64,000 nt of DNA from Gemmatimonadota bacterium (GCA_051004775.1 JBPCJZ010000084.1:16589-80588); one strand, 5' to 3'; positions 12,825 to 43,463 are shown, counted from the first letter of the stretch. Notes: generated by a model from the letters alone, not told the origin. Translations and numbers: made by a program.

Positions 12825-12846
12825 TGTCGGTGGGGTAGGCTAAGGT
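12825..12846 (+). promoter_or_regulatory. PafBC/RecA-NDp-type promoter TGTCGG-N10-TAAGGT
   Basis: TGTCGGTG-GGGTAGGC-TAAGGT matches the mycobacterial consensus TGTCRgtg-N8-TAnnnT; 33 nt upstream of the exonuclease ATG. Confidence 0.7.
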
Positions 12847-12879: not shown

Positions 12880-13629
12880 ATGAACCTGCTGGCATTCGAC
12901 ATCGAAGCGACGGGGCTCGACCCGTACGAGGACCGTATCCTGGAGCTCGCGGTGATCCGAGTCGAGGACGACGCTCTCGTCTTCCACGCGTTCTTCGACC
13001 CTGAGGGTCCGATCCCCGCCGATTCTACCGAGGTGCACGGCATTACGTCCGAGACCGTTCGCGGCTGCGCGACGTTCGCGTCCTGCGCCGCGGCGATCCA
13101 GCGCCTGGTCGACGGGGCGGTACTCGTCGGGTTCGTCTCCCGCCGCTACGACACCCTGCTGCTCGACGCAGAACTTCGCCGGGCAGAGCAGGCGGGCCTG
13201 GACCTGGACACCGTCGCGGAGATCGACCTGTACCGCGTGTGGCGCGAGGCGGAGCCGCGTAATCTCGGGTCCGCGGTGAAGCGATTTCTCGGCCGGAAGC
13301 ACGACATGGCGCACAAAGCCGTTCCCGACACCGCCGTGCTGCCTCCCCTGCTGCGCGAAATGGGCCGACTATTCGGCTACTCGATCGACGACATGGTTCG
13401 GATGAGCCGGCCGGTGGGCGAGGTCGACAGGTCCGGCCGTTTCTGCGTGGACGAGGAGACCGGGGAAGTGGTGTTCAACTTCGGCAGGCACCGGGAACAG
13501 CCGGTCCGCCTTCACGACGAGTATCTCGAGTGGATGCTCGGCGAACGTTTCCCGCCCGACACGAAAGCCGCGATCCGCGTGCTCCGGCGCAACGGCTTCT
13601 CGTGGGGGTCGGAGCGTTCGGCCGCCTGA
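12880..13629 (+). CDS. DEDDh 3'-5' exonuclease (DnaQ/Pol III epsilon-like) with ExoX-like C-terminal domain
   Basis: FDIEATG (ExoI), RYDTLLL (ExoII), HKAVPDT (ExoIII); C-terminal FNFGRH...EYLEWML; GGAGAGG RBS. Confidence 0.9.
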   Translation: MNLLAFDIEATGLDPYEDRILELAVIRVEDDALVFHAFFDPEGPIPADSTEVHGITSETVRGCATFASCAAAIQRLVDGAVLVGFVSRRYDTLLLDAELRRAEQAGLDLDTVAEIDLYRVWREAEPRNLGSAVKRFLGRKHDMAHKAVPDTAVLPPLLREMGRLFGYSIDDMVRMSRPVGEVDRSGRFCVDEETGEVVFNFGRHREQPVRLHDEYLEWMLGERFPPDTKAAIRVLRRNGFSWGSERSAA

Positions 13630-23984: not shown

Positions 23985-25370
23985 CTACCAACGCGACCCG
24001 TACAGCGACGGAATCCGGAACGCCCGGAAGATGTAGGTCCCCTCGAGGCCGGTGAGTTCGAGGGTCGCCACGCCATTCGCATCGACTTCGTCTACCCGGC
24101 CCGCCGTACCGAACGACACGAGGCCACCGCCACCGGGCAGCACTTCTGTGCTCCCCCCGATCGGCGAAAAGGCGTTCATCGCGTCGGCGAAGTCCCACAC
24201 CAGGTCGGCGGTCATCGCGGTCTCGTCGATCTCGTAGCGGACGAGACGGCTCGGCGACATGGTCCCGTTGTCGAGGAACTGGATCAGCCCGGGCTCCACT
24301 ACGCGCAGTCCATGCTGGCGTTCGAACGCCCGTACCGGGTCGGTGATCGTGAACTGGTTGGCCAGGCCGCCGAGCCGCCAGGTCACCGATCCGTCCTGCC
24401 CGTCGATCTTCGTGATCTCGTTCAGTGACCGCCACGAAAGAATCAGGTCGCCGTCCGCTTCGATCGCGATCCCGTTGCCGTGAACGATGTTGACGCTCTC
24501 CGCCCCGGTGAACACATCCGGGTCGATGTCGTCGAGGCTGAAGTGCTCGCGCGTGTTGAACTGGAAGGCCACCTGGCCGGCCGGCGTCACCCGCTGGAGC
24601 GAGTTCCACTCGACGACGCCGGTGGCCGAGCCGCCGCGCGCCGACAGGTCGGTCGGCTGAGGATCGTTGCACAGCACGAACGCGTCGCCGTCCGCGAGGA
24701 TCCGCACGTCGTGGAACCGCGTCTCGAGCCCGACGCAACCCACCGTCCGCACCTCTTCGCCACGTTCGTTGAATACCCGATAAAATCGATCGGCGTCGTT
24801 GCGCCCGAACACCGTATACTCGCCCGACGGATGGGCCTGAAAGTTGACCAGGTTGGAGTCTGGGCGCGCCAGGTACCAGCGAATCCGGCCCGCGTTGTCG
24901 ATGATAACTGGCCCTTCGGGGTGGGCGAGCCCGATGAAACCGTCCTCGGCGCCGGTCCCGACCGGGACGACCTCGGGAAGCCAGGCGGGAAGGGAATCGG
25001 TTACGAGCGTGATCGTCTCGACCGTGTCGGCGTCCGCGCCGGCAAACAGGATGACGTCGATTTCATAGCTGCGCCCCGCGAGCATCCCGAGCGCGGAACC
25101 GACGGCTGTCCCCCCGGCGAACGGATAGGCGGCCGAGCGCTCGGGCGCCTCCCCCGCGGTGCGGAGCGCGAAAGCGACCGAATCGTAACCCGTGGCATCC
25201 ACGTCGATCCGTGCGCTGTTGACGTTCGCCGCGGCCGGCGTCACAATCGCCGACTCGAAGATGGGATCCAGCGGGGGATCGACGGTGGAGTCCGAACAGG
25301 CGATGAGGAAAGCGGCTCCGGCGAGGGCGATCCAGCCCCCACGATCGTTCGTCAGTTGCAGCTTCCGCAT
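23985..25370 (-). CDS. Arylsulfotransferase (ASST)-like beta-propeller lipoprotein
   Basis: Lipobox LIAC; HDVRI, VHGNGI, LILSWRSLNEITKID, WRLGG, RQHG, FLDNG motifs. Confidence 0.8.
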   Translation of the reverse strand: MRKLQLTNDRGGWIALAGAAFLIACSDSTVDPPLDPIFESAIVTPAAANVNSARIDVDATGYDSVAFALRTAGEAPERSAAYPFAGGTAVGSALGMLAGRSYEIDVILFAGADADTVETITLVTDSLPAWLPEVVPVGTGAEDGFIGLAHPEGPVIIDNAGRIRWYLARPDSNLVNFQAHPSGEYTVFGRNDADRFYRVFNERGEEVRTVGCVGLETRFHDVRILADGDAFVLCNDPQPTDLSARGGSATGVVEWNSLQRVTPAGQVAFQFNTREHFSLDDIDPDVFTGAESVNIVHGNGIAIEADGDLILSWRSLNEITKIDGQDGSVTWRLGGLANQFTITDPVRAFERQHGLRVVEPGLIQFLDNGTMSPSRLVRYEIDETAMTADLVWDFADAMNAFSPIGGSTEVLPGGGGLVSFGTAGRVDEVDANGVATLELTGLEGTYIFRAFRIPSLYGSRW

Positions 25371-25534
25371 ACGCTCCTGTCCGGTACCGGTGACTCTGCT
25401 CTCTTCCCGCTGCGAAACTATGCGATCGGGTTGCGTCGCGCCCGCTTCGAATTGCCGTTCCGCACACCCGGGCGGTCGCGGTTATATTGCGTCCGATCGT
25501 CGCAGGCCTTCAAGCCGCTCAACGGAGAACGAGA

Positions 25535-26428
25535 ATGCGCTGGAGACAGGGACGCAAGAGCACGAACGTCGAGGACCGCAGGGGCCAGCGCCTGACCGGA
25601 AGCGGATTGAAGATCGGCGGCGGCATGGGTCTCCTGGTCCTCGTGGTCGTCGTGCTCATGGGCGGTGATCCGATGCAGCTTCTGTCGGCGATCCTCGGCG
25701 GGGGCGGCGCGGGTCAGGCTCCGGCGCCCGCGCCAGCTCCCTCGGCAGCGCCTTCCGGACGCCCGGGCGCCGACGACGAGCTCGGTGAGTTCACGACCCG
25801 CGTGCTCGGCATGACCGAAGACGCCTGGACGGAGATCTTCGCGGCCTCGGGCCAGCGGTATCGGCCGCCCGTCCTCGTGATGTTCACCGACGCGACGCAG
25901 TCGGCCTGCGGCTACGGCTCATCGGCGACCGGACCGTTCTACTGCCCCTCTGACCAGAAGGTCTACATCGACCTCGGGTTCTTCGGCGACCTCGCCCGGA
26001 TGGCCGGGGTCGGCTCGGAGGACTTCGATTTCGCCGGCGCGTACGTGATCGCCCACGAAGTCGGGCACCACGTGCAGAACCTTCTCGGCACCTCTGACGC
26101 CGTGCGCCAGGCGCAGACACGCTCGCCCGGCGACGCGAACCGGCTCTCCGTCCTGCTCGAACTGCAGGCGGACTGCTTCGCGGGCGTGTGGGCGAACCGC
26201 ACGAACGCCCGTGGCGGCGGCCAGGTGCTCGAGCCGGGCGACGTAGAGGAAGGCCTCCGCACCGCCGCCGCGATCGGCGACGATCGAATGCTGAAGAACG
26301 CGGGGCGGTCCGCGTCGCCCGAATCCTTCACCCACGGCTCATCGGAGCAGAGGCAGCAGTGGCTGCGGCGCGGGCTCGACAGCGGCGATCCCGACACGTG
26401 CGACACGTTCGCCCAGGCCGGCTATTAG
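25535..26428 (+). CDS. ypfJ: Neutral zinc metallopeptidase (YpfJ family)
   Basis: MRWRQGRKSTNVEDRRG start, GPFYCPSD, AHEVGHHVQ, ELQADCFAG, FTHGSSEQR. Confidence 0.93.
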   Translation: MRWRQGRKSTNVEDRRGQRLTGSGLKIGGGMGLLVLVVVVLMGGDPMQLLSAILGGGGAGQAPAPAPAPSAAPSGRPGADDELGEFTTRVLGMTEDAWTEIFAASGQRYRPPVLVMFTDATQSACGYGSSATGPFYCPSDQKVYIDLGFFGDLARMAGVGSEDFDFAGAYVIAHEVGHHVQNLLGTSDAVRQAQTRSPGDANRLSVLLELQADCFAGVWANRTNARGGGQVLEPGDVEEGLRTAAAIGDDRMLKNAGRSASPESFTHGSSEQRQQWLRRGLDSGDPDTCDTFAQAGY

Positions 26429-26463
26429 CGGCCGGTGACCTGCTACTAGCCGCCTCGAACCCC

Positions 26464-27627
26464 GTGCCGACCGACCGCATCAGCAAGGCGCAGCGTTGGC
26501 TCGACCTGATCGCCTACCTGCTCGGGCGGCGGCGTCCGGTTACCGTCGAGCAGATCTTCTCGGCTGTTCCCGCCTATCGCGAGGCCGCGGGTCCGGAAGG
26601 CGATCCGCTCCCCGCGTCGGTGCGCCGGATGTTCGAGCGTGACAAGGACGAGCTGCGGACCCTCGGCGTTCCGATCGAGACCGAACGCTTCACGATCAAC
26701 TACGGCACGGAGTTCGTCGACGGCTACGTGCTGCGTCCCGACGCGTTTTATCTGCCGTATCTGAAGCTGGTCGACGAAGCCGTCGTACCCGCCTCCCCGG
26801 AGACGTACGCCCGCGCGGCCGCCGCCGGGCATGCGGCGGGCCGCGACGCGTCCGGCGCGCCGAGCGCTCAGGAGTTCACTGCGGGGGAAGTCCAGCTTCT
26901 GCTCGGCGCCCTCCAGGAAGCCGCCGGCCTGCCGGATTCCCCGTTCACGGACGCGTCGAGTTCCGCCGCCCGCAAGCTGTCCTTCGACCTCGGCCCGGCC
27001 GATCGAACGGGCCCCGTTCGCGCGGAGGAGCCGGGCGGGTCGGAGCAGGCGGCGATGATCCGGCAGTTGAGCGAGGCCCTGCTCCGCCGCAAGCGAGTCG
27101 ACTTCCGGTACCACGGCATCCGCCGGGGCGAACCGACGGACCGGTCCGTGGCCCCGTACGGGCTCTTCATGGAACGGGGAGCCTGGTATCTCGTCGGGTT
27201 CGATGAACTGCGCGATGGGATTCGCGTGTTCCATGCGGGCCGGATGGAGGCGCCGCGCACAAACAGCCGCGCGCCCGCGACCGCCGACTACGCAATCCCC
27301 GACGACTTCGACCTCAGTTCCCATCGCGACCGGGAGGCGTGGCAGTTCGGCGAGGAAGACGAACCGGTGACGGCACGAGTGCGCTTCCAGGCTCCCCATG
27401 ACCGGTGGGCCGCGCGGAACGGCTACGGTGAGCCCGAAGAGACGGCCGGCCCCGCCGCGGGCCAGGCGGGCGGACACGCCTCGATTCGCCGCTTCACGGT
27501 GCGCGATCCGGGGCCCTTCTGCGATTGGATCCTTGGATTGCGGGGGGCGGCGGATATTCTCGAACCGCCCGAGCTGCGCGCGGAAGTCGGACGCCGCGCG
27601 CGGGCGATCGCGGAAGGTCATCGCTGA
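26464..27627 (+). CDS. WYL-domain transcriptional regulator, PafB-like
   Basis: N-terminal HTH SKAQRWLDLIAYLL...RRMFERDKDELRTLGVPI; WYL core VAPYGL...GAWYLVGFD...RVFHAGRM; WCX tail; GTG start 26464 estimated. Confidence 0.9.
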   Translation: MPTDRISKAQRWLDLIAYLLGRRRPVTVEQIFSAVPAYREAAGPEGDPLPASVRRMFERDKDELRTLGVPIETERFTINYGTEFVDGYVLRPDAFYLPYLKLVDEAVVPASPETYARAAAAGHAAGRDASGAPSAQEFTAGEVQLLLGALQEAAGLPDSPFTDASSSAARKLSFDLGPADRTGPVRAEEPGGSEQAAMIRQLSEALLRRKRVDFRYHGIRRGEPTDRSVAPYGLFMERGAWYLVGFDELRDGIRVFHAGRMEAPRTNSRAPATADYAIPDDFDLSSHRDREAWQFGEEDEPVTARVRFQAPHDRWAARNGYGEPEETAGPAAGQAGGHASIRRFTVRDPGPFCDWILGLRGAADILEPPELRAEVGRRARAIAEGHR

Positions 27628-28574
27628 TGGCCGGCTCCGCCGCGGACCAGCTCGCGCGCCTGCTCTACCTGCTTCCGGCGGCAGCCCGGGGCGGCCTCTC
27701 CACCCGCGAGGCGGCCGCGCGGCTGGAGGTCGACGAGGAGACCGTCCTGGCCGACCTCGCCGACGTCACGGCGCGGGAGTTCTACCATCCGGCGGGGGGC
27801 GCCGACGACGTCCGGGTCGAGATCGAAGCCGAACGCATCCACATCCGAGGAGAGAAGTTCATGCGACCCCCGCGCCTCAATGCGCGCGAGGCGCTGGCTG
27901 TGCACCTCGCCCTGCGTCGCCACGCGGCGGGGCTCGGCGGGGAGGCGCGCGCGGCCGTGCTCGAACTTGCGGAGCGCGTCGGCCGGATCCTCGCCTCGGA
28001 GAATACGGAGGAGGACGCTCGGCGCATCGCGCTCGAGGAGGAGGCCGTGGGGCTCCGGCTCGAGCTCCAGGCCGCCGCCAGCGAAGGCATCCGCTGCCGA
28101 ATGGTCTATCTGCGGCCAGGCGCGGAGGCGGAGACCGAGCGCACGCTCGATCCGTACGCGGTCGTCGGATCGCACGGCTCCTGGTTCGTGATCGGATTCA
28201 GCGACCCGCGCGGCGACGTGCAGGTGTTTCGTCTCGATCGCATCCTCGAACTGGAGGACACGGGCGAGCGTTTCGAACCGCCGTCCGACTTCGATACGGC
28301 GCCGTACGTGGAAGGCGGGCGGGTGTTCCGCGCGGAGACGACCCGCGAGGTCCGGGTGCGCTATCGCGGAACGGCGGCGGCGCGCATGCGGGAGTGGTAT
28401 CCGGCGGCGGAGAGCGTCGGCGAGGAGACGCTAGTGGTTTACGCAGTCGCCGACCCCGAGTGGATCGTCCGGCACGTCCTCGAGCACGGGGGAACGGCGG
28501 AGGTCGAGTCGCCGCCGGACGTGCGCGGACTCGTCGCGGAGGCCGCGGCGACTCTCGGTGGAGCGTATCCGTGA
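27627..28574 (+). CDS. WYL-domain transcriptional regulator, PafC-like
   Basis: QLARLLYLLP...EAAARLEVDEETVLADL HTH; LDPYAVV...SWFVIG...FRLDRI; ATG overlaps the pafB-like stop (TGATG). Confidence 0.9.
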   Translation: MAGSAADQLARLLYLLPAAARGGLSTREAAARLEVDEETVLADLADVTAREFYHPAGGADDVRVEIEAERIHIRGEKFMRPPRLNAREALAVHLALRRHAAGLGGEARAAVLELAERVGRILASENTEEDARRIALEEEAVGLRLELQAAASEGIRCRMVYLRPGAEAETERTLDPYAVVGSHGSWFVIGFSDPRGDVQVFRLDRILELEDTGERFEPPSDFDTAPYVEGGRVFRAETTREVRVRYRGTAAARMREWYPAAESVGEETLVVYAVADPEWIVRHVLEHGGTAEVESPPDVRGLVAEAAATLGGAYP

Positions 28575-28685
28575 AGCGGGGCTGACGGCGCCGAAACCAG
28601 CCACGGCGAGGTAGAAGTCCGGCGCGGCCGGACAGGGCCCACGCGGCGGGCCGAGCGGGGCTGTCGGCTCCACGCCCGCGGACCG

Positions 28686-28691
28686 TACTGT
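28686..28691 (+). promoter_or_regulatory. Candidate -10 (TACTGT) 5 nt before the addB ATG, possibly leaderless
   Basis: TANNNT directly before ATG 28697; no SD; TGTCGG 18 nt upstream. Confidence 0.35.
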
Positions 28692-28696
28692 GCCCC

Positions 28697-31600
28697 ATGC
28701 CGCTCCGAATCGTACGAGCTCCGACGAGTGCCGGGTTGTGGTCGGCCTGCATGGAAGGCTGGCTCGACGACCTGGGCCCGGCCACCGGACCGGGTCCGCA
28801 CGCCTCCCGCCTCTGGCTCGTCCACCGAACCCAGCGCGATGCCGCACTCTCCGCGTCGGTCGCTCGCGGCGTGCCCGGTTGGTTCGATCCACCCCTTCAC
28901 TTCCTCTCGGAGCTCGGCGAGTTGTTCGGCATTCAGCGTCGCCCGATCGGCATCCTCACCGGCCGCCTCCTGGTCGCCAGGCTCGCCCGCGACCACGGAA
29001 GACGCATCGGGCTGCGCGCGTCCTTCGGCGAAGAGGGTCCCGCCCGCTCTCACATGCTCGACGGACTGATCGGCGAGCTGCTGGCGGAGGGCGTCGCGCC
29101 CGCGGCGCTGCGCGAGAGCCTCGGGGGCCGTCCGAGCGACGAGTTCGGCCGCCTGCGCAACGCCTGGGTCTGTGACACGTACGCGGCCCTGCTGGACGCG
29201 CTCGCGCATCAGGGGCTGTACGACGCACGGCAGATCCACGCACTGGCCGCCGAGCGCATCGAGACGGGCGGGCTGAGCGTCGCTGTGCGGGGCGCACGCA
29301 CGCTCCACGTGTACGGCCTGAGTTCGCTCAGCCGCCGCGAACGCTTGTTTCGGGCGCTGGCCGCTCAGGCGTCGGTGGATGTCCGGGTATATCAGCTCGA
29401 CGAAGGCGAACCCTCGGAGTGGGACGATCTCCCCGGCGTGGCCGACTCGCCGGCCACTGTTGCGGACGCCGCGCCTCGCGCCGCCGCTGTGCCCGACGTC
29501 GCGCCCGTCGCGCCCGACACTGCCGAAAGCGAAGATCGCGCGGCGGGCGTCACGATCCGGCCCGCTCCCGACGCGGTACGCGAAGCCGCCTACGTGGCGC
29601 GCCGTGTGAAGCAGTTGCTCGCCGCGGGGGAGTGCCGCCCATCGGAAGTGGCGGTCGTCGCGCGTTCGGGCCGGGAGGATACGCGCAGGATCCATCGGGC
29701 CCTGGAAGACGCGGGCGTCCCCTCCTCCGCCCGGCTCCGTACGGTTCTGGCCCAGATTCCCGCACTGCGAGCGCTCCTCGACCTGTTCGGGGCGGAGGCC
29801 TCGGGTTGGGACTACGGCAGTCTGCGCACCGTGGGCACGAGTCCGTACTTCGCGATCGGCCTCGACGCGCGGCCGCTCGACTACCTCGCTTCCAAGCGAC
29901 GCATCGCCGGGCTCGCGAACTGGGAGGGGGCGCTGGCCGAGCTGGCCGAGGCCCTGGCTCACGATCGGGACCATCCGGAAGCGCGCCGCCTCCGCGGCCG
30001 CGGTATCGGTTCGGACCGCGTGGCGGCCGCCGCGCGTGGCGTAGCCAGGCTGCGGGAGCACGTCGCGGGTCTGGCCGGCCAGCGTGGGGAGTCGGACTGG
30101 ATCGATCTCACCCGGTCCTTCACCGCCGGCGGGGGCCTCGAATACCTGCGGCGAATTTGCCGGGTGGTCGGAGGACGCTACGATCTCGTCCGCCTGGATC
30201 AGCGTGGCGTGCGCGTGCTCGACTCCCTCCTTGCGGAATGGCGGGGTCTGCTCTCGACGTCCACGGGTCTGACGGCGGCCGACTGGCACGGCCGGCTTCG
30301 CCGGCTGCTCGAGGCGAACGAACTCGCGCTCTCGACGCCTTCGTACCATGGAGTCAAGATTCTCGAGGCGCACGAAGCCGCCCTGACACCGTTTCGCCAT
30401 GTCTTCGTCGTGCACGCCAACGACGGCGAGTTTCCGCGGACGCCGCGCGCGGCGGGCATCTTCACCGACGGAGAACGGGCCGCGCTGCGAGCCGCGGGTC
30501 TTCCTCTCGAGGACCGCACGACCGCACTGCGCCGCGAACGCTCCCTGTGGCGCGCCGTTACCGCGGGGGAGTCGGTGACGCTCACGTACCGGACGTCGAC
30601 CTCCGCCGGGGTGCCGCTGCTTCCGTCGCTCATGGTGCCCGACCACGAGGCGGAGAGCGCGCTGCCCCGCACGATCGTGCACGCCGATGATGATCTCGAG
30701 GCCGTCAGCCGGGCCGAGCAACTGCGCCTCGAGGTACTGCGTCTCGCCAGGAAGCGTCGCGGCGGCGAAGAGGGCAAGCTCGAAGTCGCCGACGTTCCCG
30801 CCGTCCGCCATGCCGTCCTCGGCGCCTTCGCCGAGGAGCTGCGCGCCGGCCGCCTGGACGACGTGGAATCGATCGAGCCCGGGCTAGGACTCGAACCGTC
30901 TCCCTTGCTCGGACGGGATCGTCCGCTGTCCCAGCGGTCCCATGCGTGGAACGGCCGCCTTCGGGACCCCGCACTGCTCCAAGTGATCGGGGAGCGATTC
31001 GGGCCGGAACACGTCTGGTCGGCGAGCCAGTTGCAGCAGTATGCGGTCCGCCCGTTCGATTTTCTGCTGGCCCGCGTGCTGCGCATCGAACTCCGCGAGG
31101 AGGCGGGGGAGGAGACGTCCCCGATGGCCTCGGGCAGCGTGGTTCACGCGGTGCTCGAGGCGCTCCACGGTCGCCTGCTGGGCGCGGACGAGGCCGGCTT
31201 CGCCGCGGGTCCTGCCCTGCTGGAGGAGGTGTCCCGCGACGTGTTCAAAAGGCTCGAGCGCGAGGCCGGACTCTGGCTCGGCCTGCCCGCCCTCTGGAAC
31301 CTGAAGCGTGCGCATCTGCGCGAGACCGTCCGCGGCTTCGTGACCTGGGACTTCGCCTGGCTAGCGAAGCGCTCGGCCCGGCCCGAGGCGGTGGAAGCGC
31401 GGTTCGGATCCGACGGCGCGGAGCCGGTGGAGATCACGGGCACCGACCTCGCCGGGCGAGCCGCCGCCCTGCGGCTTGCCGGCCGGATCGATCGCGTCGA
31501 TCGGGTCGGGCGTGCGGGCGATCGGCTGCGGATCGTGGACTACAAGCTCGGTGATCCCCCCGCGAGGAAGCGCTACGATGACGGAGCGCTGCTCCAGTCC

Positions 31601-31921
31601 GCCCTCTACTCGGCGGCGTGGGAGCGGCTGGGGAGCCGGCGACCGAGCGAGGCGCTGTTCCTCTCGATCCGCAGCCCCGGCAAGGGCTCGATGTCGGGTC
31701 TCAAAGACAGTGGCGTCGAGGACGTACTTCGATTTGCGTTGTCCATCCCGGCACGTGTGCGCGCCGGGCTGTTCGAACCGGTGCAGGCGGCCACCGCGCA
31801 CCCTGCCTCCGACTGGCAGCCCGGCCCCGAGATCACCCGCACGCAGTCCTGGATCACCGCCGGGCACCGCTTCGACAACCCGGCGGAGGGCGCCGCCCCG
31901 GGGAGCCCCGGCGATGAGTGA
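28697..31921 (+). CDS. addB: AddB/RexB-like subunit (inactive helicase domain + PD-(D/E)XK nuclease)
   Basis: EAAYVARRV, VAVVARS, HVFVVHANDGEFP; C-terminal SASQL, GSVVHAVLE, GRIDRVD, IVDYK, LQSALY; no intact Walker A. Confidence 0.85.
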   Translation: MPLRIVRAPTSAGLWSACMEGWLDDLGPATGPGPHASRLWLVHRTQRDAALSASVARGVPGWFDPPLHFLSELGELFGIQRRPIGILTGRLLVARLARDHGRRIGLRASFGEEGPARSHMLDGLIGELLAEGVAPAALRESLGGRPSDEFGRLRNAWVCDTYAALLDALAHQGLYDARQIHALAAERIETGGLSVAVRGARTLHVYGLSSLSRRERLFRALAAQASVDVRVYQLDEGEPSEWDDLPGVADSPATVADAAPRAAAVPDVAPVAPDTAESEDRAAGVTIRPAPDAVREAAYVARRVKQLLAAGECRPSEVAVVARSGREDTRRIHRALEDAGVPSSARLRTVLAQIPALRALLDLFGAEASGWDYGSLRTVGTSPYFAIGLDARPLDYLASKRRIAGLANWEGALAELAEALAHDRDHPEARRLRGRGIGSDRVAAAARGVARLREHVAGLAGQRGESDWIDLTRSFTAGGGLEYLRRICRVVGGRYDLVRLDQRGVRVLDSLLAEWRGLLSTSTGLTAADWHGRLRRLLEANELALSTPSYHGVKILEAHEAALTPFRHVFVVHANDGEFPRTPRAAGIFTDGERAALRAAGLPLEDRTTALRRERSLWRAVTAGESVTLTYRTSTSAGVPLLPSLMVPDHEAESALPRTIVHADDDLEAVSRAEQLRLEVLRLARKRRGGEEGKLEVADVPAVRHAVLGAFAEELRAGRLDDVESIEPGLGLEPSPLLGRDRPLSQRSHAWNGRLRDPALLQVIGERFGPEHVWSASQLQQYAVRPFDFLLARVLRIELREEAGEETSPMASGSVVHAVLEALHGRLLGADEAGFAAGPALLEEVSRDVFKRLEREAGLWLGLPALWNLKRAHLRETVRGFVTWDFAWLAKRSARPEAVEARFGSDGAEPVEITGTDLAGRAAALRLAGRIDRVDRVGRAGDRLRIVDYKLGDPPARKRYDDGALLQSALYSAAWERLGSRRPSEALFLSIRSPGKGSMSGLKDSGVEDVLRFALSIPARVRAGLFEPVQAATAHPASDWQPGPEITRTQSWITAGHRFDNPAEGAAPGSPGDE

Positions 31922-34900
31922 GTTCCGGTGGACCCCCGAGCAGGTCCGCGTCCTGCTCGATCGGGAGAATGGCCTGCTCGCGGCGAGCGCCGGAACGGGG
32001 AAGACCCGGACGATCGTCGGGAAGATCGGCTGGCTGCTTGGAATCGACGTCGGGCCGGGCCCCGACGGACTGCCGATTCCCCCGCCCCCGGCTCCGTGTT
32101 CGCTCGATCAGATTGCCGCGATCACCTTCACCGAGAAGGCCGCCTCGGAACTGAAAGACCGCCTGCGGGACATCGTGGAGGGCTCCGACCGAGCAGCCGA
32201 ACTCCGCTGGGAACTCGACCGCGCGTCCGTGGGCACCATTCATGGTTTCTGCGCCGGACTGCTGCGCGAGCACGCACTGCGGCTCGACATCGATCCGACC
32301 TTCCGGGTGCTCGATGATCGCGAAGCGACGCTCCGTCTGCACGAGATCATTCGAGCCGTCGTCCTGCGGGCCGTCGAGGAGGGTGGGGACGCGATCGGGA
32401 ACCTGCTCGACCGCTTCCAGCTCTACGACGGCAACTACCGCACGGGCCTCGTCGGGGTCGTGGATTCCGCCGTCCGGGACCTTCGCTGGCACGCGCACGC
32501 GTACGACGACTGGGTGATCGATCGATCGAGTGCTGCCGAGCCCGCGGCGCTCGATCTCGATCGGCTCCGGGCGATCGCCGCCGAGCGACTTTCCGGCGCC
32601 GTCATGGACGCCGGAGACGAGGCGGCGCTCGAACTCGCCGACGCCCTGTACGGCCTCGCGCATCGGGCGGTGGCCGACTGGCTGCGGTGGATGGAGGAGG
32701 AGAACGTCCGGGACTTCGACAGCCTCATCCTCGACGCACGCCGCCTCCTGACGCGCCCCGAACACCGGTCGGCCCTGGAGTCTATCCGTGCGGGGCTTCG
32801 CATCCTGATCATCGACGAGTTCCAGGACACGGACGCCGCGCAGCGCGACATCGCGTTCGCGCTCGCGGGGATCGGAGATCCGGATCCCGGTCCCGTACCC
32901 CAGCTGCTGGTCGTCGGCGATCCGAAGCAGAGCATCTACGGATTCCGGGGTGCGGACGTGCGCGTGTGGAACGACGTGCGCCGACGGTTGTGCGGGGACC
33001 GGCCGCCCATGCGGCTGACCGAGAACTTCCGCAGTCAGCCCGGCCTGGTCGAGTTCATCAACGAGGTGGCAGAGGCCGCGATCGAGAACGCGGGCGACGC
33101 GTCGAAGGAGCACGATCGGGATCTGTACATTCCCTACACGCCGCTCCAGGCGTACCGGTCCGAAGCGCCCGGCCAGGGTGTCGACTGGCTCGACTGCACG
33201 GTCGAAGGCGGCACCCGTTCGGATCGGGCCGCGCTGGAGGCCCGACTCGTCGCGTCCAGGGTCCGTTCGCTCCTCGACGGGGAGAAACTGAGGGATCCCC
33301 GCACCCTCGAGCTCCGTGGCGTCGAAGCGCGGGATATCGCGATCCTGGCCCGGACGCGTCGCGCGCTCGACGAAGTGGACGAGGCCCTGCGCGAAGCCGG
33401 GATCCGGGTATACAACGCCGCCCGCCTCGGCCTGTCGAACCGGGCGGAAGTGCTCGACCTCGTCACCACGCTCCGGCTGCTCGCGGACCCCGAGGACGAC
33501 TACCACGCCTGCGCCTGGCTGAGATCTCCGCTCGTGGGCCTGCGCGACGAGGTAGTGGTGCGCTTTCGCCTGGATCGCGGGGCGCGGCCGGGTGCCCTGC
33601 TGCGACAGGCGCGCCGCCACATCGAACGCTGCGAGAGCGGAGACGCTTCGTGGTTCGAGGCGCCCGAGCATCCGGAGGTAGCCGGCATCGAGCGCGAGGC
33701 TCTCAGTCGCGGCCTCGACGCGCTGGCGGAAGCCCAGGCCCTCGTCGATCGCGCCCCCGCATCGGAACTGCTCGAAGACATCGTGCGCCGGACCGGATAC
33801 CGCCTCCATCTGCTCCTGCGTCCCGGTGCCGAGGAGTCCCTCGCGGCAATGGAGCGATTCTCCGCCTTACTCGACGAGTATCGGCACCTTCCAGTCGGGA
33901 CGTTCCTCGCGCTGTGGGACCGCTGGGGCGATCAGGATCTCGGGATTCCGCAGGCGCCGTTGTTCAGCGCCGCTGACGACGTCGTGACGCTCCAGACGAT
34001 CCACACGGCGAAGGGCCTGGAATGGCCGATCGTGTTTCTCCTGCGCGCGGGCGACGGGAGTACCGACCGCTTGAAGGATTCCTACGTGTCGGACCCTCGA
34101 CTCGGCCCTGCGCTGCTGCCGAAGGCCTCCGAGCGAGGGGCACGGGCGGGCGCCATCGCCGAGCGCGTCCTGGCCGCGGAACGGGCGGAAGAATCCAGGC
34201 TTCTCTACGTCGCGCTCACTCGCGCGGCCGACCGGATCGTCGTCTCCGCCCACGATGTCGACGCGGGGTACATGGAGTTTCTGCGGCCGGCCCTGCGCGA
34301 CGCTGTGCCGCCCCACCTCGTCGCCGCCGACGGAGGTCCTCGGCCAGGCCGGAAGGCCGCACGCGCGGCGCGCGTCGACGATCCAGCCAGCCGGACGGGA
34401 AGCCAGATCGAAGTGTTCGATCCGGACGGGACGGGACAGATGGACCTGTTCCTCAATCGTCGGCCGGGCGGCGAGCCCCCGGAGGCGGCCGAAGGCCTTC
34501 GGCGCGTCGTCTACCGGACGCCCGATCCGGGGCAGGGTTCACTCACGCCGCTCCCGGTCACCCTGGACTGGCTCGACGCGCTCGTGCCGGGCCCGGTGGA
34601 CGGCCTCGCGCGGCCGATCGAGGTTCCCACCGAGAGGCCCGTCACCTCGGCGACGGAACTGCAGCTCCGCGCGGCCGATCCCGCTGCCTGGCGCCTCCGC
34701 TACGTACACGCCGTCGAAGAAGCATGGCGGTTCGCTCCGACAGGCGCGGCGACCGGGATTCCCGCGACGCTTCGCGGCACCTTGATCCACGGGGTGCTGG
34801 AGCGGATTCGAGCGATCGACGACCTCGCCGACGTCCTGGACGAGACGATCGCGGGGCTGGATGCACCCCCCGGCGTGGAGGAACAGCTCCGGCCCGGCGC

Positions 34901-35255
34901 CGAGTATCGATTGGCACTCGAGACGGAAATCGCCCGCGTCGTGAAGGGCGAGGAGTGGCAATGGTACGTCGAGGGCGAGCACTCCCGTGAACTTCGCTTC
35001 CTGGTCCTCGACACGCCCGGACCCTGGATCACAGGGGCCCTCGACCTGTACCGCGCCACGCCCGAGCCGTGGGTCATCGACTTCAAGACGCATCGGATCG
35101 GCGCGGCGGAGATTCCGGCGGTAGCGGAGGAGTATCGCATCCAGGCCGACGTGTATCGGGGGGCCGTGGCGGCCCTGAGCGGTCGCGCGCCGGGCGTCCG
35201 CTTGCACTTCACGCACCCCAACGTCGCCACCGACCTGTCCCGGCCCCGCGACTGA
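31914..35255 (+). CDS. addA: AddA-like UvrD helicase-nuclease
   Basis: ASAGTGKT, ITFTEKAA, TIHGFC, DEFQDT, GDPKQSIYGFRG, ENFRS, TIHTAKGLEW, RLLYVALTRA; nuclease GTLIH, GALDL, IDFKT; ATG 31914 overlaps the addB end by 8 nt. Confidence 0.92.
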   Translation: MSEFRWTPEQVRVLLDRENGLLAASAGTGKTRTIVGKIGWLLGIDVGPGPDGLPIPPPPAPCSLDQIAAITFTEKAASELKDRLRDIVEGSDRAAELRWELDRASVGTIHGFCAGLLREHALRLDIDPTFRVLDDREATLRLHEIIRAVVLRAVEEGGDAIGNLLDRFQLYDGNYRTGLVGVVDSAVRDLRWHAHAYDDWVIDRSSAAEPAALDLDRLRAIAAERLSGAVMDAGDEAALELADALYGLAHRAVADWLRWMEEENVRDFDSLILDARRLLTRPEHRSALESIRAGLRILIIDEFQDTDAAQRDIAFALAGIGDPDPGPVPQLLVVGDPKQSIYGFRGADVRVWNDVRRRLCGDRPPMRLTENFRSQPGLVEFINEVAEAAIENAGDASKEHDRDLYIPYTPLQAYRSEAPGQGVDWLDCTVEGGTRSDRAALEARLVASRVRSLLDGEKLRDPRTLELRGVEARDIAILARTRRALDEVDEALREAGIRVYNAARLGLSNRAEVLDLVTTLRLLADPEDDYHACAWLRSPLVGLRDEVVVRFRLDRGARPGALLRQARRHIERCESGDASWFEAPEHPEVAGIEREALSRGLDALAEAQALVDRAPASELLEDIVRRTGYRLHLLLRPGAEESLAAMERFSALLDEYRHLPVGTFLALWDRWGDQDLGIPQAPLFSAADDVVTLQTIHTAKGLEWPIVFLLRAGDGSTDRLKDSYVSDPRLGPALLPKASERGARAGAIAERVLAAERAEESRLLYVALTRAADRIVVSAHDVDAGYMEFLRPALRDAVPPHLVAADGGPRPGRKAARAARVDDPASRTGSQIEVFDPDGTGQMDLFLNRRPGGEPPEAAEGLRRVVYRTPDPGQGSLTPLPVTLDWLDALVPGPVDGLARPIEVPTERPVTSATELQLRAADPAAWRLRYVHAVEEAWRFAPTGAATGIPATLRGTLIHGVLERIRAIDDLADVLDETIAGLDAPPGVEEQLRPGAEYRLALETEIARVVKGEEWQWYVEGEHSRELRFLVLDTPGPWITGALDLYRATPEPWVIDFKTHRIGAAEIPAVAEEYRIQADVYRGAVAALSGRAPGVRLHFTHPNVATDLSRPRD

Positions 35256-39712: not shown

Positions 39713-42304
39713 CTACTCGCCCGAGACCCGACCGGCGAGGCGACCGAGCGCGCCAATCAGGTCCGGCTCTGTCTCGAGCACGTCGAGCAGCGGATCCTCG
39801 GACATGCGGGCGAGACGGCGGGGCATGCTCCGAATCGTGAACTTGTCGAGCCGCAGCCGGCCGTTCACCTCGCGCCAGCGCAGCGGCGCGGAGACCCAGG
39901 CGCCGGCGACCGGACGCACGCTGTAGGGCGCCACAAGCAGCTGGCCGCGCCGATTCTGCAGGAAGTCGACGTACACTTTGCCCTCCCGTTCGTCGAGGGC
40001 TCGTGCGATGGTCGCGACGCCCGGCATCTCTTCGACGACGACCCTCGCGAGCAACTCACCGAGCGTACGGGACTGCTCGTAGGTGAACACGCGGCCGAGC
40101 GGGATCAGCACGTGGAGCCCGCTCGACCCGCTCGTCTTCACGTAGTTGGGGAGCTCGATCTCGTCGCACAGCCGGTGAAGGAACTTCGCGATCTCCACCA
40201 CCTCCGAGAACGGCGCCCCCTTCGGGTCGAGGTCGAGGATGCACCAGTCGGGCCGGTCGAGGCTGTCGACGCGGCTGGCCCAGACGTGGAGCGGGATCGA
40301 CCCCAGGTTCGCCAGGTAGAGCAGGGAAGCCTCGTCGTCGCAGACGAAGTAGTCGATCTTCTTGTCGGAGCTCTCGCTCGCGACGTTCACCGTGCGAATC
40401 CACTCCGGAGTGGAGACCGGCGCGTTCTTCTGGTAGAATGACTTGCCGTCGATTCCGTCGGGATAGCGCGTGAGGACGAGAGGGCGGTCGGCCAGGTACG
40501 GGAGCAGCCACGGCGCGACGGCCCGGTAGTATTCATACAGGTCGCGCTTCGTATAGCCTTCATCGGGCCAGAAGATCTTCTCCGGGTTCGACAGCGCGGG
40601 GAGTTGCAGGGCCGGCTCCTCCGAGTCGGCAGCCGCGTCGGCCTCGAAGTCGTGGCCGTCTTCGTCCTCCCCGCGCGCCGCGGACGGAACCCCGCTCGCG
40701 TCCTCCGGGAACGCGCATTGCCCGGGCTCCTTGTCGTCGCGCAGCCTCACGAACACGGGGTGGCGCAGGAGCCCATCGTTCGTCCACTCCAGGTAGCGCA
40801 CCTCCGCGACGCACACGGGCTCGACCCACGTCGAGTCGGCGTCCTTCGGGCTGCCTACGGCCGGGGAAGCCCCGGTCGCAAGCGGAGCCAGCGCGTCGCG
40901 GAGCGCGGCGAGTTCCGCATCCGTGAAGCCCGTCCCGACGCGTCCGGCGTAGCGCAACTCTCCGTCGTCCAGCCCCGCCAGGTGCAGCGCCCCGAAGCCT
41001 GAGCGCGACCCCTTCGGCGCGGTGAAGCCGACGATCACCAGGTCCGCCGTCCGTTCGGCGCGCACCTTCCGCCAGGCATCCGAACGACCCTTCCGGTAGG
41101 GGCTCCCGAGCCGCTTTCCCACGATGCCTTCGAGCCCCAGGCCGACGACCTGTTCGTACAACGCCTCTCCCTGTTCCCGGAAGTCGTCGACATAGCGCAG
41201 CGGACCGGCCGGGGGCAGGAGGTCGCGGAGCAGCGCCTTCCTGCGTTCCACGGGGAGGCCGCGCAGGTCGTGGCCGCACAGGCCGGGTAGATCGAAAGCG
41301 TAGAACGTGGCGGGTCGTCGCAGCGACGCGCCCTTCACGTCGACGGCCCGCCGCAGCCGCGCCCGGTTCTGCAGGCGCTGGAAGTCCGGCCGGCCGGCCG
41401 GATCGTGCATCACGACTTCGCCGTCGATCACCGCATCCGTGATCGGCAGGGCCTTGATGGCTCGCGCCAGCTCCGGAAACGAGCGCGTCGCGTCGTTCCC
41501 GTTGCGGGTGAGGAGCCGCACCCCGGGTCCCGTCTTGGCCGCGAGCATCCGGTATCCGTCGAGCTTGAGCTCGAACATCCAGTCCGGGTCGCTGAACGGC
41601 TCATCGACGGCTCGCGCCAGCATGATCCCCAGGCGCTCGGCACGGACGGGGCGGGCCGGCGCCTCCAGTTTCTCGAGGCGCCGGGCGAACTCGGCGGAGC
41701 GTTCGACCCCCTCGCCGAGTTCCGTCACCGTGAGGCCGCTGAGCACGGATGCCTGCGAAATCGTGGCGTCCGCCTCGGGCGCCGCCTCGCGCTCGGCCGC
41801 GCTCATGTGCCGCGTCTCGCGGATCATGAGCCACTCGTTCTCCGCGCGCTTGATCTTCACGAGCGTCCAGACGCCGCGGAGCTTGTATCCCCGCAGCTCG
41901 AACAGGAGCTTGCCGGACTCGAGGCCGGCCACCGGATCCTCGAGGGCGCTCCAGGTTCCCCGATCCCAGATGATCATGGCGCCGGCGCCGTAGTTGCCCT
42001 CCGGGATCACGTCCTCGAAGTCGACGTACTCGAGCGGGTGGTCCTCGACGTGCACGGCGAGGCGCTTCTCGGCGGGGTCTAGCGACGGCCCCTTCGGCAC
42101 GGCCCACGAGGCGAGGGAACCGCCCAGCTCGAGTCGGAGGTCCCAGTGCAGCCGGGACGCGTCGTGCTGATGAATAACAAACAGGCCGCCGCCCGCAGCG
42201 TCCGCGTCCACGTCCGGCGCGCCGACCGGGCCCACCCCTGGCTCCGGCGTCGCGCCGGGCACGCGTTTGCCGCGATACCGCTCCAGCCGGTCCGCGGGAC
42301 TCAC
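39713..42304 (-). CDS. ligD: NHEJ DNA ligase D (phosphoesterase-ligase-polymerase order)
   Basis: PE: FVIHQHDASRLHWDLRLE, SWAVPKGPS; LIG: ELKLDGYR, EGIVGK; POL: LSNPEK, FYQK, DLDP, KTSG, DFLQN, APYSVR. Confidence 0.95.
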   Translation of the reverse strand: MSPADRLERYRGKRVPGATPEPGVGPVGAPDVDADAAGGGLFVIHQHDASRLHWDLRLELGGSLASWAVPKGPSLDPAEKRLAVHVEDHPLEYVDFEDVIPEGNYGAGAMIIWDRGTWSALEDPVAGLESGKLLFELRGYKLRGVWTLVKIKRAENEWLMIRETRHMSAAEREAAPEADATISQASVLSGLTVTELGEGVERSAEFARRLEKLEAPARPVRAERLGIMLARAVDEPFSDPDWMFELKLDGYRMLAAKTGPGVRLLTRNGNDATRSFPELARAIKALPITDAVIDGEVVMHDPAGRPDFQRLQNRARLRRAVDVKGASLRRPATFYAFDLPGLCGHDLRGLPVERRKALLRDLLPPAGPLRYVDDFREQGEALYEQVVGLGLEGIVGKRLGSPYRKGRSDAWRKVRAERTADLVIVGFTAPKGSRSGFGALHLAGLDDGELRYAGRVGTGFTDAELAALRDALAPLATGASPAVGSPKDADSTWVEPVCVAEVRYLEWTNDGLLRHPVFVRLRDDKEPGQCAFPEDASGVPSAARGEDEDGHDFEADAAADSEEPALQLPALSNPEKIFWPDEGYTKRDLYEYYRAVAPWLLPYLADRPLVLTRYPDGIDGKSFYQKNAPVSTPEWIRTVNVASESSDKKIDYFVCDDEASLLYLANLGSIPLHVWASRVDSLDRPDWCILDLDPKGAPFSEVVEIAKFLHRLCDEIELPNYVKTSGSSGLHVLIPLGRVFTYEQSRTLGELLARVVVEEMPGVATIARALDEREGKVYVDFLQNRRGQLLVAPYSVRPVAGAWVSAPLRWREVNGRLRLDKFTIRSMPRRLARMSEDPLLDVLETEPDLIGALGRLAGRVSGE

Positions 42305-42608: not shown

Positions 42609-43463
42609 ATGAGCGCCCGACCGATGGGATCGGCCACTGTATCGTTCGGACTCGTATCCGTTCCCGTGAAGCTATTTTCTACCGCGGACAACACGAGCAA
42701 GATTTCCTTCAACTGGATCTCGCCCTCCTCCGGCGCGCGAGTCAAGCAGAAGTACTGGGATCCGAAGGAAGAGCGCCTGGTGGAGCGCGACGAACTGGTG
42801 AAGGGATACGAGTTCGCGCGCGACCAGTATGTGCTGTTCGAGCCCGACGAACTGAAGGTGCTCGACGCGCAGGCGACCAACACGATCGACATCGAGGAGT
42901 TCATCCCGTTCGAGGCCGTGGAGCGGCTGTGGCTGAACAAGGCCTACTTCCTCGGCCCGGACCGCGGTGGGGAGCGGGCGTACCGCCTGCTCAGTGCGGC
43001 GCTCCAGAAGACGGGCCGCGCGGCCCTCGGACGCTATGCGGCCCGCGGCAAGGAATACATCGTCCTCGTGCGGCCGATCGGCGACGGTCTGATGCTCGAA
43101 CAGCTCTACTACCCGGAGGAACTGCGCTCTTTCGAGGAAGTTCCGACCGGAGACGCCGAAGTGAAGAAGGCCGAACTGGACCTGGCGGTGCAGCTCATCG
43201 AGCAGGCGTCCGCCGACGAGTTCAAGCCGGAGCAGTTCGAGGACTCGGTCCACAAGCGCGTCCTCGCGCTCATCGAGAAGAAGATCGAGGGCGAAGAGAT
43301 CACCGCCGCACCGGAAGTGGAGCCCGAAGGCAAGATCATCGATCTCATGGAGGCGCTGAAGGCGAGCCTCGGAGACGCCGACTCGGGGGCGGCGGGAAAG
43401 AAACGGAAACCCGCGAAGCCGGCTGCCGCCAGGAAGACGCAGCGCAAGGCAGCCTCCAAGTAG
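42609..43463 (+). CDS. ku: NHEJ Ku protein
   Basis: SFGLVSVPVKLF, LVKGYE, YFLGPD, AYRLL, IDLMEALKASL, basic tail; AGGAG RBS. Confidence 0.95.
   Translation: MSARPMGSATVSFGLVSVPVKLFSTADNTSKISFNWISPSSGARVKQKYWDPKEERLVERDELVKGYEFARDQYVLFEPDELKVLDAQATNTIDIEEFIPFEAVERLWLNKAYFLGPDRGGERAYRLLSAALQKTGRAALGRYAARGKEYIVLVRPIGDGLMLEQLYYPEELRSFEEVPTGDAEVKKAELDLAVQLIEQASADEFKPEQFEDSVHKRVLALIEKKIEGEEITAAPEVEPEGKIIDLMEALKASLGDADSGAAGKKRKPAKPAAARKTQRKAASK

Follow-up and report, generated by a model that had tools for sequence, protein, structure and literature searches.

The stretch of DNA analysed here, a 64,000-nucleotide window (C84:16589-80588) of a Gemmatimonadota metagenome-assembled genome (MAG; 2.36 Mb in 198 contigs, 79% complete), contains a tandem pair of genes encoding winged helix-turn-helix (wHTH)-WYL-WCX proteins, followed by the genes for the two subunits of an AddAB-type helicase-nuclease. 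The organism is not an actinobacterium: the closest relatives of the source genome are Gemmatimonadota, labelled Longimicrobiales for the most part. The first gene of the pair starts 35 nt after the end (26428) of a ypfJ-type zinc metallopeptidase gene, which also lies 5' of the pair in loci L003, L007, L012, L015 and L023. Its stop codon and the start codon of the second gene have one base in common in a TGATG junction (a 1-nt overlap, coupling the two genes), and addB, itself overlapping addA by 8 nt, begins 122 nt past the second gene. These coordinates and the domain matches (Table 1) agree with an initial annotation of the sequence, which had described a translationally coupled HTH-WYL-WCX pair with an RRMFERDK N-terminus in the first product, located after ypfJ and 122 nt before addB-addA. 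The same annotation had proposed a PafB/PafC-type pair as a candidate undescribed system. The analyses reported here identify the two genes, from their sequences, as orthologues of PafB and PafC; the locus extends the known PafBC system to a new phylum and represents neither an undescribed system nor a new mechanism.

Comparison with solved structures assigned each gene product to one half of PafBC. The first protein (N-terminus RRMFERDKDE) matched the A. aurescens PafBC fusion protein (6sj9) at 8e-20 and PafB of M. smegmatis (9fnd_X, 7p5x_AY) at about 4e-19, with its residues 5-108 aligning on residues 4-99 of M. smegmatis PafB (HTH alignment, 1.3e-9). The second protein had its best match in the PafC portion of 6sj9 (1.8e-15), followed by M. 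smegmatis PafC (1.3e-7) and, more weakly, PafB (7e-5); its residues 6-310 aligned end to end on residues 5-310 of M. smegmatis PafC (7p5x_AX). Chains of PafBC, PafB and PafC (6sj9, 7p5x, 9fnd) were the sole significant solved relatives of both proteins, the next for the second protein being two generic WYL chains (E=0.017). No match of either protein to DriD, BrxR or CapW was found among solved structures with the threshold loosened to E=10, and PADLOC models returned only generic CRISPR-associated WYL matches for both.

To place the pair among its relatives, 60 tandem pairs were extracted from the fetched loci and a phylogeny was inferred with IQ-TREE on 56 sequences, comprising 25 Gemmatimonadota pairs and three actinobacterial pairs. 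The resulting tree groups the first gene product with actinobacterial PafB and the second with actinobacterial PafC, each with a support of 99% in the Shimodaira-Hasegawa-like approximate likelihood ratio test (SH-aLRT). Inside each half every phylum forms one group, and the branching of the B half largely mirrors that of the C half. The actinobacterial reference L077 carries mpa, dop, pup, prcB, prcA and pafA directly upstream of its pair and is thus a canonical paf locus.

Residues with an assigned function are also kept. In M. smegmatis PafB, R46 and R50 read the GTC triplet of the target site (PMC8635444), and the RMFERDKDELR stretch that holds both is identical across all displayed Gemmatimonadota and actinobacterial PafB proteins, including that of the window. 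The groove for single-stranded DNA (ssDNA) involves R181, Y196, R204, R208, R211 and R214 of PafB and R201 and R204 of PafC (PMC11804915). R181, Y196 and R214 are present in 58/58 Gemmatimonadota PafB sequences, R208 as arginine or lysine in all 58, and R211 in 54, with R204 being variable; the arginines of the PafC FRxDRI segment (R201/R204) are retained in the second protein. On the basis of the tree, the kept functional residues and the solved relatives, we classify the two proteins as orthologues of PafB and PafC, as the initial annotation had surmised, the sequences placing the B/C duplication before the origin of the lineage. Among the 31 closest genomes, WYL genes comprise exactly this pair and nothing else wherever any are present, and phylum-wide the second gene directly follows the first in 52 of the 54 Gemmatimonadota loci with enough flank. 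MAGs labelled Gemmatimonas aurantiaca (L039, L041) are among the carriers of the pair.

Table 1. Features of the window discussed in the text (positions counted from its first nucleotide).
Feature	Position	Strand	Description
PafBC-type promoter of exo	12825-12846	+	-26 box TGTCGG, 10 nt, -10 element TAAGGT (TGTCGGTG-N8-TAAGGT; site, TGTCGGTGGGGTAGGCTAAGGT)
RNase T/DnaQ-like 3'-5' exonuclease (exo), candidate regulon member	12880-13629	+	249 aa; Pfam RNase_T 4.4e-18
ypfJ-type zinc metallopeptidase	25487-26428 (ORF)	+	probable ATG 25535; Pfam Zn_peptidase 4.5e-102; NCBIfam YpfJ equivalog 1e-100
Gene 1, predicted pafB orthologue (wHTH-WYL-WCX)	26464-27627	+	GTG start; 387 aa; Pfam WYL 2.5e-20, WCX 5e-11
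Gene 2, predicted pafC orthologue (HTH_PafC-WYL-WCX)	27627-28574	+	315 aa; Pfam HTH_PafC 1.7e-9, WYL 9e-17, WCX 4e-9
addB upstream element, degenerate	28662-28691	+	TGTCGG (28662-28667), 18 nt, TACTGT (28686-28691), 5 nt to ATG
addB-type subunit	28697-31921	+	1074 aa; Pfam PDDEXK_1 6e-28
addA-type subunit	31914-35255	+	1113 aa; Pfam UvrD-helicase 3e-43 and UvrD_C

The helicase-nuclease encoded after the pair is, as judged from its sequence, of the AddAB rather than the AdnAB type, and very divergent, all NCBIfam AddA and AddB models falling far under cut-off for the window proteins. Among solved structures, AddA comes closest to its B. subtilis namesake (3u44_A, 3e-40), with AdnB and RecB ranking lower, and the protein combines a UvrD-like motor (GTGKT) with a C-terminal RecB-type nuclease (GALDLY...IDFKT). 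AddB is closest, weakly, to B. subtilis AddB (3u44_B, 3e-5); it has no Walker A motif and carries a C-terminal PD-(D/E)XK nuclease (GRIDRVD...VDYK). No cysteine occurs in AddB past residue 488, so that the iron-sulfur cluster cysteines of the B. subtilis protein are absent and the nuclease motif is kept. The window enzyme resembles B. subtilis AddAB (3U44/3U4Q) as a predicted two-subunit resection helicase-nuclease with motor and RecB nuclease in AddA and an inactive motor plus nuclease in AddB, and differs from it in the missing C-terminal cysteine cluster and the distance of its AddB. With mycobacterial AdnAB, a PafBC target in mycobacteria, it has in common the character of a helicase-nuclease for resection of double-strand breaks. 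The window AddA also contains a QMDLF segment (residues 842-846; 34437-34451) in a low-complexity stretch between motor and nuclease. In genomes G003, G013 and G019 the addB match includes one in-frame TGA, for which sequencing error, frameshift or pseudogene are possible explanations.

The initial annotation had pointed out that the window holds no Pup-proteasome genes, and none turned up in the assembled genome either. Pup_ligase had no match in the source genome (79%-complete assembly, window included), and tblastn searches of that genome with Mpa, Dop, PrcB, PrcA and PafA of L077 returned one generic AAA ATPase match and nothing else. Among 301 evenly sampled Gemmatimonadota genomes, a Pup ligase occurs in seven, none of which belongs to the family of the source genome, and a PafC-type HTH occurs in 90 (about 30%), drawn from 52 of 127 genera. 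The two lists of genomes have zero overlap. The HTH_PafC model also matches in the E. coli and B. subtilis controls and is not specific alone.

The same genome, searched for pafA, pup and lexA, does encode LexA (C120:12402-13004), and lexA is present in 30 of the 31 relatives; recA is missing from the source MAG and present in the relatives. Since both LexA and LexA boxes are found, the pair would define a second damage regulon beside LexA/SOS, as in mycobacteria, rather than a replacement for LexA. The LexA-independent circuit put forward initially therefore fails if taken to mean a LexA-free lineage, and would be a regulon beside SOS. The LexA operator in the order of the source genome appears to be a direct repeat, CTTC-N7-GTTC (TTCGGnTCCTGTTCGG), seen in two copies in lexA promoters (loci L113-L141), once over the recA -35 element as GAAC-N7-GAAA (L083-L110) and downstream of the imuA -10 element (L224-L245). 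It resembles the alphaproteobacterial LexA operator, GTTC-N7-GTTC. In two relatives, recA was recovered in three or two separate pieces inside one long frame (1181 aa in G017, G017:C7:77068-80430; also G002:C431), suggesting one or two inteins in the RecA of some relatives.

In M. smegmatis, chromatin immunoprecipitation (ChIP) defines the PafBC motif as tGTCgg(N10)tA(N3)T, with the box at -26 and no -35 element (PMC8635444). A site of this type precedes exo, 13.6 kb upstream of the pair, at a distance of 33 nt from the ATG at 12880 and with no evident -35 element. It is the sole strict match to TGTCRGTG-N8-TANNNT in the genome (1 found, 0.2 expected). The pattern TGTC[AG]N-N10-[TC]AnnnT recurs at the same place before exo in 9/10 orthologous upstream regions, whose flanks are otherwise unalignable. 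The matching cis-element that the initial annotation had placed at 12825 is thus real and conserved. Furthermore, the exo gene is found in 10 of the 31 relatives, all of them pair-bearing (10/15 with the pair vs 0/16 without).

A scan of the genus revealed recurrent orthologous promoter matches at four groups only: exo, addB, imuA and a gene for an SbcD-like nuclease. The 33 sites compiled from these groups yield the consensus TGTCgGaccc-N5-cTAtnnT, that is, TGTCgG-N10-TAtnnT, which is the M. smegmatis ChIP motif. In the loci from which these sites come, a looser pattern has a background rate of 0.017 per 100 nt. Before addB, the genus form is CTGTCGGTGTCGG-N10-TATACTGTG-N4-ATG (G001, G005, G006 and G007), a sequence that would imply a leaderless or nearly leaderless message. 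The addB box stands at the canonical N10 spacing in six pair-bearing relatives (these four, G011 and G014), and three more pair-bearing relatives present weaker forms, with a cAnnnT -10 element or GTCAC; in G003 and G004 addB is preceded by GTCGG or GTCGT-N10-cATAAT or cATACT. Canonical addB boxes occur also in loci L012, L015 and L023; no -35 element is seen in these or in G011 and G014. The flanks of the addB sites in the pair-bearing relatives are otherwise unalignable. In the source genome, the SbcD-like nuclease gene (C71:3989-5116, followed by an sbcC-like ATPase gene) has its box at C71:3871, and the site was verified in five genomes. The imuA promoter (C146:24710 in the source genome) combines TGTCAG-N10-TATCAT with a downstream LexA box in 6/6 genus genomes holding the gene, a parallel to mycobacteria, where imuA'/B are under dual LexA and PafBC control and adnA is exclusively PafBC-dependent (PMC8682763). 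It is plausible, on this comparison, that addBA would be a direct target of the pair, like adnAB in mycobacteria. A further GTC element, located 6-13 nt 5' of the -26 box, is present in many of the PafBC-type promoters, as in CTGTCCCGCGTCGTGTCGG (sbcD, C71:3840-3892) and CTGTCGGTGTCGG (addB).

Several further candidates were discarded or left as ambiguous. The recA genes of the family share a conserved block, CCGAAnAAATTGCGAAAGTC[GAC][GC]-N10-TAnnnT (GTC[GAC][GC]-N10-TAnnnT), the first part of which is the LexA box (GAAC-N7-GAAA) over the -35 element, and pair-less genomes keep GTCC[GC]; recA is therefore ambiguous as a target. The recurrent matches at an rpoZ-like gene fall within the gmk coding sequence. 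Seven kb beyond addA, a ligD-like gene (863 aa; 39713-42304, minus strand) is divergent from ku (42609-43463, plus strand), making the window rich in double-strand-break repair genes; the ku/ligD intergenic region holds no box, and the match at 42669-42690 is antisense inside ku. No box was found upstream of ypfJ or pafB that would point to autoregulation, a promoter and terminator scan of 25300-28760 gave nothing useful, and a motif search of the incomplete MAG (79%) did not find the primary sigma factor.

The synteny of the pair with addB and addA, a further element of the initial annotation, is constant in the genus and sporadic across the phylum. Linkage to addBA is seen in 8/8 genus genomes, the pair being adjacent in most and separated by a 0.9-kb gap in G007. 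In the family, a 2.6-kb gap in G011 holds exo between pafC and addB, the gap in G014 is of about 1.1 kb, and G009, G010 and G015 have the pair on other contigs. Across the phylum, AddB- and AddA-like genes lie within reach in 5/21 loci having at least 8 kb on both sides, and the linked addBA genes may be downstream of the pair, upstream of it or on the opposite strand. Given these counts and the varied arrangement, the linkage is characteristic of particular lineages, having arisen with more than one gene arrangement, and is not a fixed operon of the phylum. Other neighbours recur as well. A protein of about 394 aa without Pfam match, absent from the source genome, is encoded beside the pair in 13 loci, mostly just upstream (L023:6747-7931, L004, L005, L012, L015); 8 loci have a neighbouring gene for a vWA-domain protein (about 425 aa; L019:12217-13494), and the homologue of this protein in the source genome (C36:10292-11530, 51% identity) is unlinked to the pair. 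One locus has a RecB-like nuclease-helicase beside the pair.

We regard it as probable, by analogy with mycobacteria, that these PafB and PafC orthologues of Pup-free Gemmatimonadota work on the promoters of DNA-repair genes as their mycobacterial counterparts do. Following the mycobacterial work, a PafB-PafC heterodimer would bind ssDNA in its WYL/WCX groove, and ssDNA arising from breaks or stalled forks would thereby activate the pair. The activated pair would then act on promoters that have TGTCGG about 26 nt before the start site, a normal -10 element and no -35 element: the PafB HTH would read GTC and the PafC HTH would stand in for the -35 element in contacting the housekeeping sigma factor, the process termed sigma adaptation. 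The predicted outcome is expression of DNA-repair genes, with AddAB, the DnaQ/RNase T-like exonuclease, SbcDC and, together with LexA, ImuAB making up the candidate regulon in the genus. Feedback is plausible in such a scheme, as AddAB would make the ssDNA that induces AddAB, and the same holds in principle in mycobacteria.

A number of observations weigh against this interpretation. At the level of the proteins, the tree includes no other WYL families as an outgroup, and this is the chief weakness of the orthology assignment; R211 is replaced by histidine in PafB of the window and of loci L003 and L011; and the PafC residue aligned with D62 is non-acidic, the alignment being uncertain there. 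At the level of the promoters, addB of the window retains the distal TGTCGG copy at N18, 8 nt too far, and its proximal copy has decayed to CCACG, and G002 has no addB box, with 40 nt between pafC and addB; in both genomes addBA may be transcribed by readthrough from pafBC. The imuA box falls between the -35 and -10 elements of an ordinary promoter, and pair-bearing genomes of other genera lack it; we keep imuA as a genus-level candidate only. The recA GTCGG abuts the LexA box. Phylum-wide, the linkage to addBA is sporadic, as detailed above. Finally, the motif is not clearly enriched: TGTCRG-N10-TANNNT has 6 matches in the source genome vs 3.4 expected, and 69 genus-wide vs 52 for the reversed control. 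Raw counts, including the 1 vs 0.2 of the strict pattern, were accordingly set aside as a genome-wide regulon signal, only orthologous recurrence being informative.

Furthermore, the box and the regulator do not co-occur cleanly. The addB box is kept as TGTCGG-N10 in G012 (87% complete) and G018 (93%), both of the family of the source genome, and in the weaker form TGTCAG-N10-cATATT in G019 (97%, from the sister family), and the assemblies of all three contain no WYL gene, nor was any remnant of the pair found within 8 kb of addB; overall, the addB motif is uncorrelated with the pair (about 9/13 with it vs 3/5 without). These genomes lend weight to an explanation in which TGTCGG-N10-TAnnnT is read by another factor, or by RNA polymerase alone, and the WYL pair has a different set of targets. 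The pair may be missing from G012 and G018 through incomplete assembly, however, and the exo gene, which has the best box, is confined to pair-bearing genomes. In addition, 10 nt leave too little room for a -35/-10 promoter or one of the extracytoplasmic function (ECF) type, and the box agrees fully, in sequence as in spacing, with the experimentally defined PafBC site, whose reading residues are invariant in Gemmatimonadota PafB (PMC8635444). We accordingly consider a different reader of the box improbable.

No more probable is a local role, in which the pair would regulate only ypfJ-addBA, as a repressor or an activator in the fashion of CapW or BrxR, and the TGTCGG boxes elsewhere would be unrelated to it. 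Many WYL regulators do act on neighbouring genes (PMC9122601, PMC11662680), the genus as a whole keeps the pair next to addBA, and the lack of clear genome-wide enrichment of the motif would fit such a role. Against it stand the same box and spacing before four unlinked DNA-repair loci, a linkage to addBA that extends to only 5/21 loci across the phylum, and the identity of the proteins, which are predicted PafB/PafC orthologues with the GTC-reading residues intact and no CapW or BrxR match.

The initial annotation had itself named grouping with defence-associated WYL proteins (BrxR/CapW) as an outcome that would speak against its proposal, and it is very improbable that the pair is a defence-island regulator of this kind with the UvrD-like and PD-(D/E)XK genes forming a Gabija-like anti-phage module: AddA matches the PADLOC model of the UvrD helicase GajB down to 1.5e-36 and the WYL proteins match generic CRISPR-associated WYL models, but the GajB matches span the shared UvrD fold only, AddA is closest to B. 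subtilis AddA and ends in a RecB-type nuclease, PADLOC models returned nothing for AddB, no GajA, BREX or CBASS genes are adjacent, and the locus is a conserved chromosomal synteny in 8/8 genus genomes rather than an island, with even GC content along the window (65-73%).

The interpretation of the pair as PafBC can be set against the other WYL systems known to respond to DNA damage or to regulate adjacent genes. With actinobacterial PafBC (7P5X, 9FND; fused in 6SJ9) the Gemmatimonadota system has in common tandem paralogous wHTH-WYL-WCX genes with one-to-one orthology, the RMFERDK motif, the arginines and tyrosine of the ssDNA groove, TGTCGG-N10-TAnnnT before repair genes, an end-resection helicase-nuclease as presumed target, imuAB with LexA and PafBC-type boxes, and LexA/SOS alongside. 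It differs in belonging to a phylum of the Gram-negative type, with no pafA, dop, pup or proteasome genes in the genome or family; in the position of the pair, which follows ypfJ and immediately precedes its presumed target; in an AddAB-type rather than AdnAB-type enzyme; and in the window PafB, which has a longer low-complexity linker (387 vs about 331 aa) and the histidine at R211. DriD of Caulobacter crescentus and the WYL activators of Acinetobacter and Moraxellaceae likewise stand for ssDNA-sensing, SOS-independent damage responses in Gram-negative bacteria, but they are homodimers with palindromic upstream sites, unlike the B/C pair (a presumptive heterodimer) and -26 box described here. 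BrxR and CapW share the wHTH-WYL-WCX architecture and a regulator gene located beside what it controls; in contrast to the present pair, which has no specific match to them and no neighbouring defence genes, they are homodimeric repressors of phage-defence operons.

The literature presents PafBC as master activator of the response to DNA damage in mycobacteria and actinobacteria, and sigma adaptation has been shown only with mycobacterial RNA polymerase. Within the library searched, no paper joined PafBC and Gemmatimonadota, the PafBC papers concerning actinobacteria only. The intact residues, the same box at repair genes and the occurrence of a PafC-type HTH in about 30% of genomes, none of them with a Pup ligase, suggest that the PafBC mechanism can operate outside Actinobacteria and does not depend on pupylation. 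More tentatively, and with a confidence somewhat short of even, PafBC together with the -26-box promoters may represent an independent two-subunit damage activator of greater age rather than an actinobacterial invention tied to Pup, joined to AddAB in some lineages as a self-reinforcing break circuit. If so, the activator would work with the housekeeping sigma factor of a phylum of the Gram-negative type and would command nucleases acting at DNA ends (AddAB, SbcDC and the DnaQ-like exonuclease). The results extend the phyletic range of PafBC and separate it from pupylation, provide a concrete candidate regulon (addBA, sbcDC, the exonuclease gene and imuAB) for a soil phylum with an unstudied damage response, and offer a natural case for whether sigma adaptation works without actinobacteria-specific polymerase partners.

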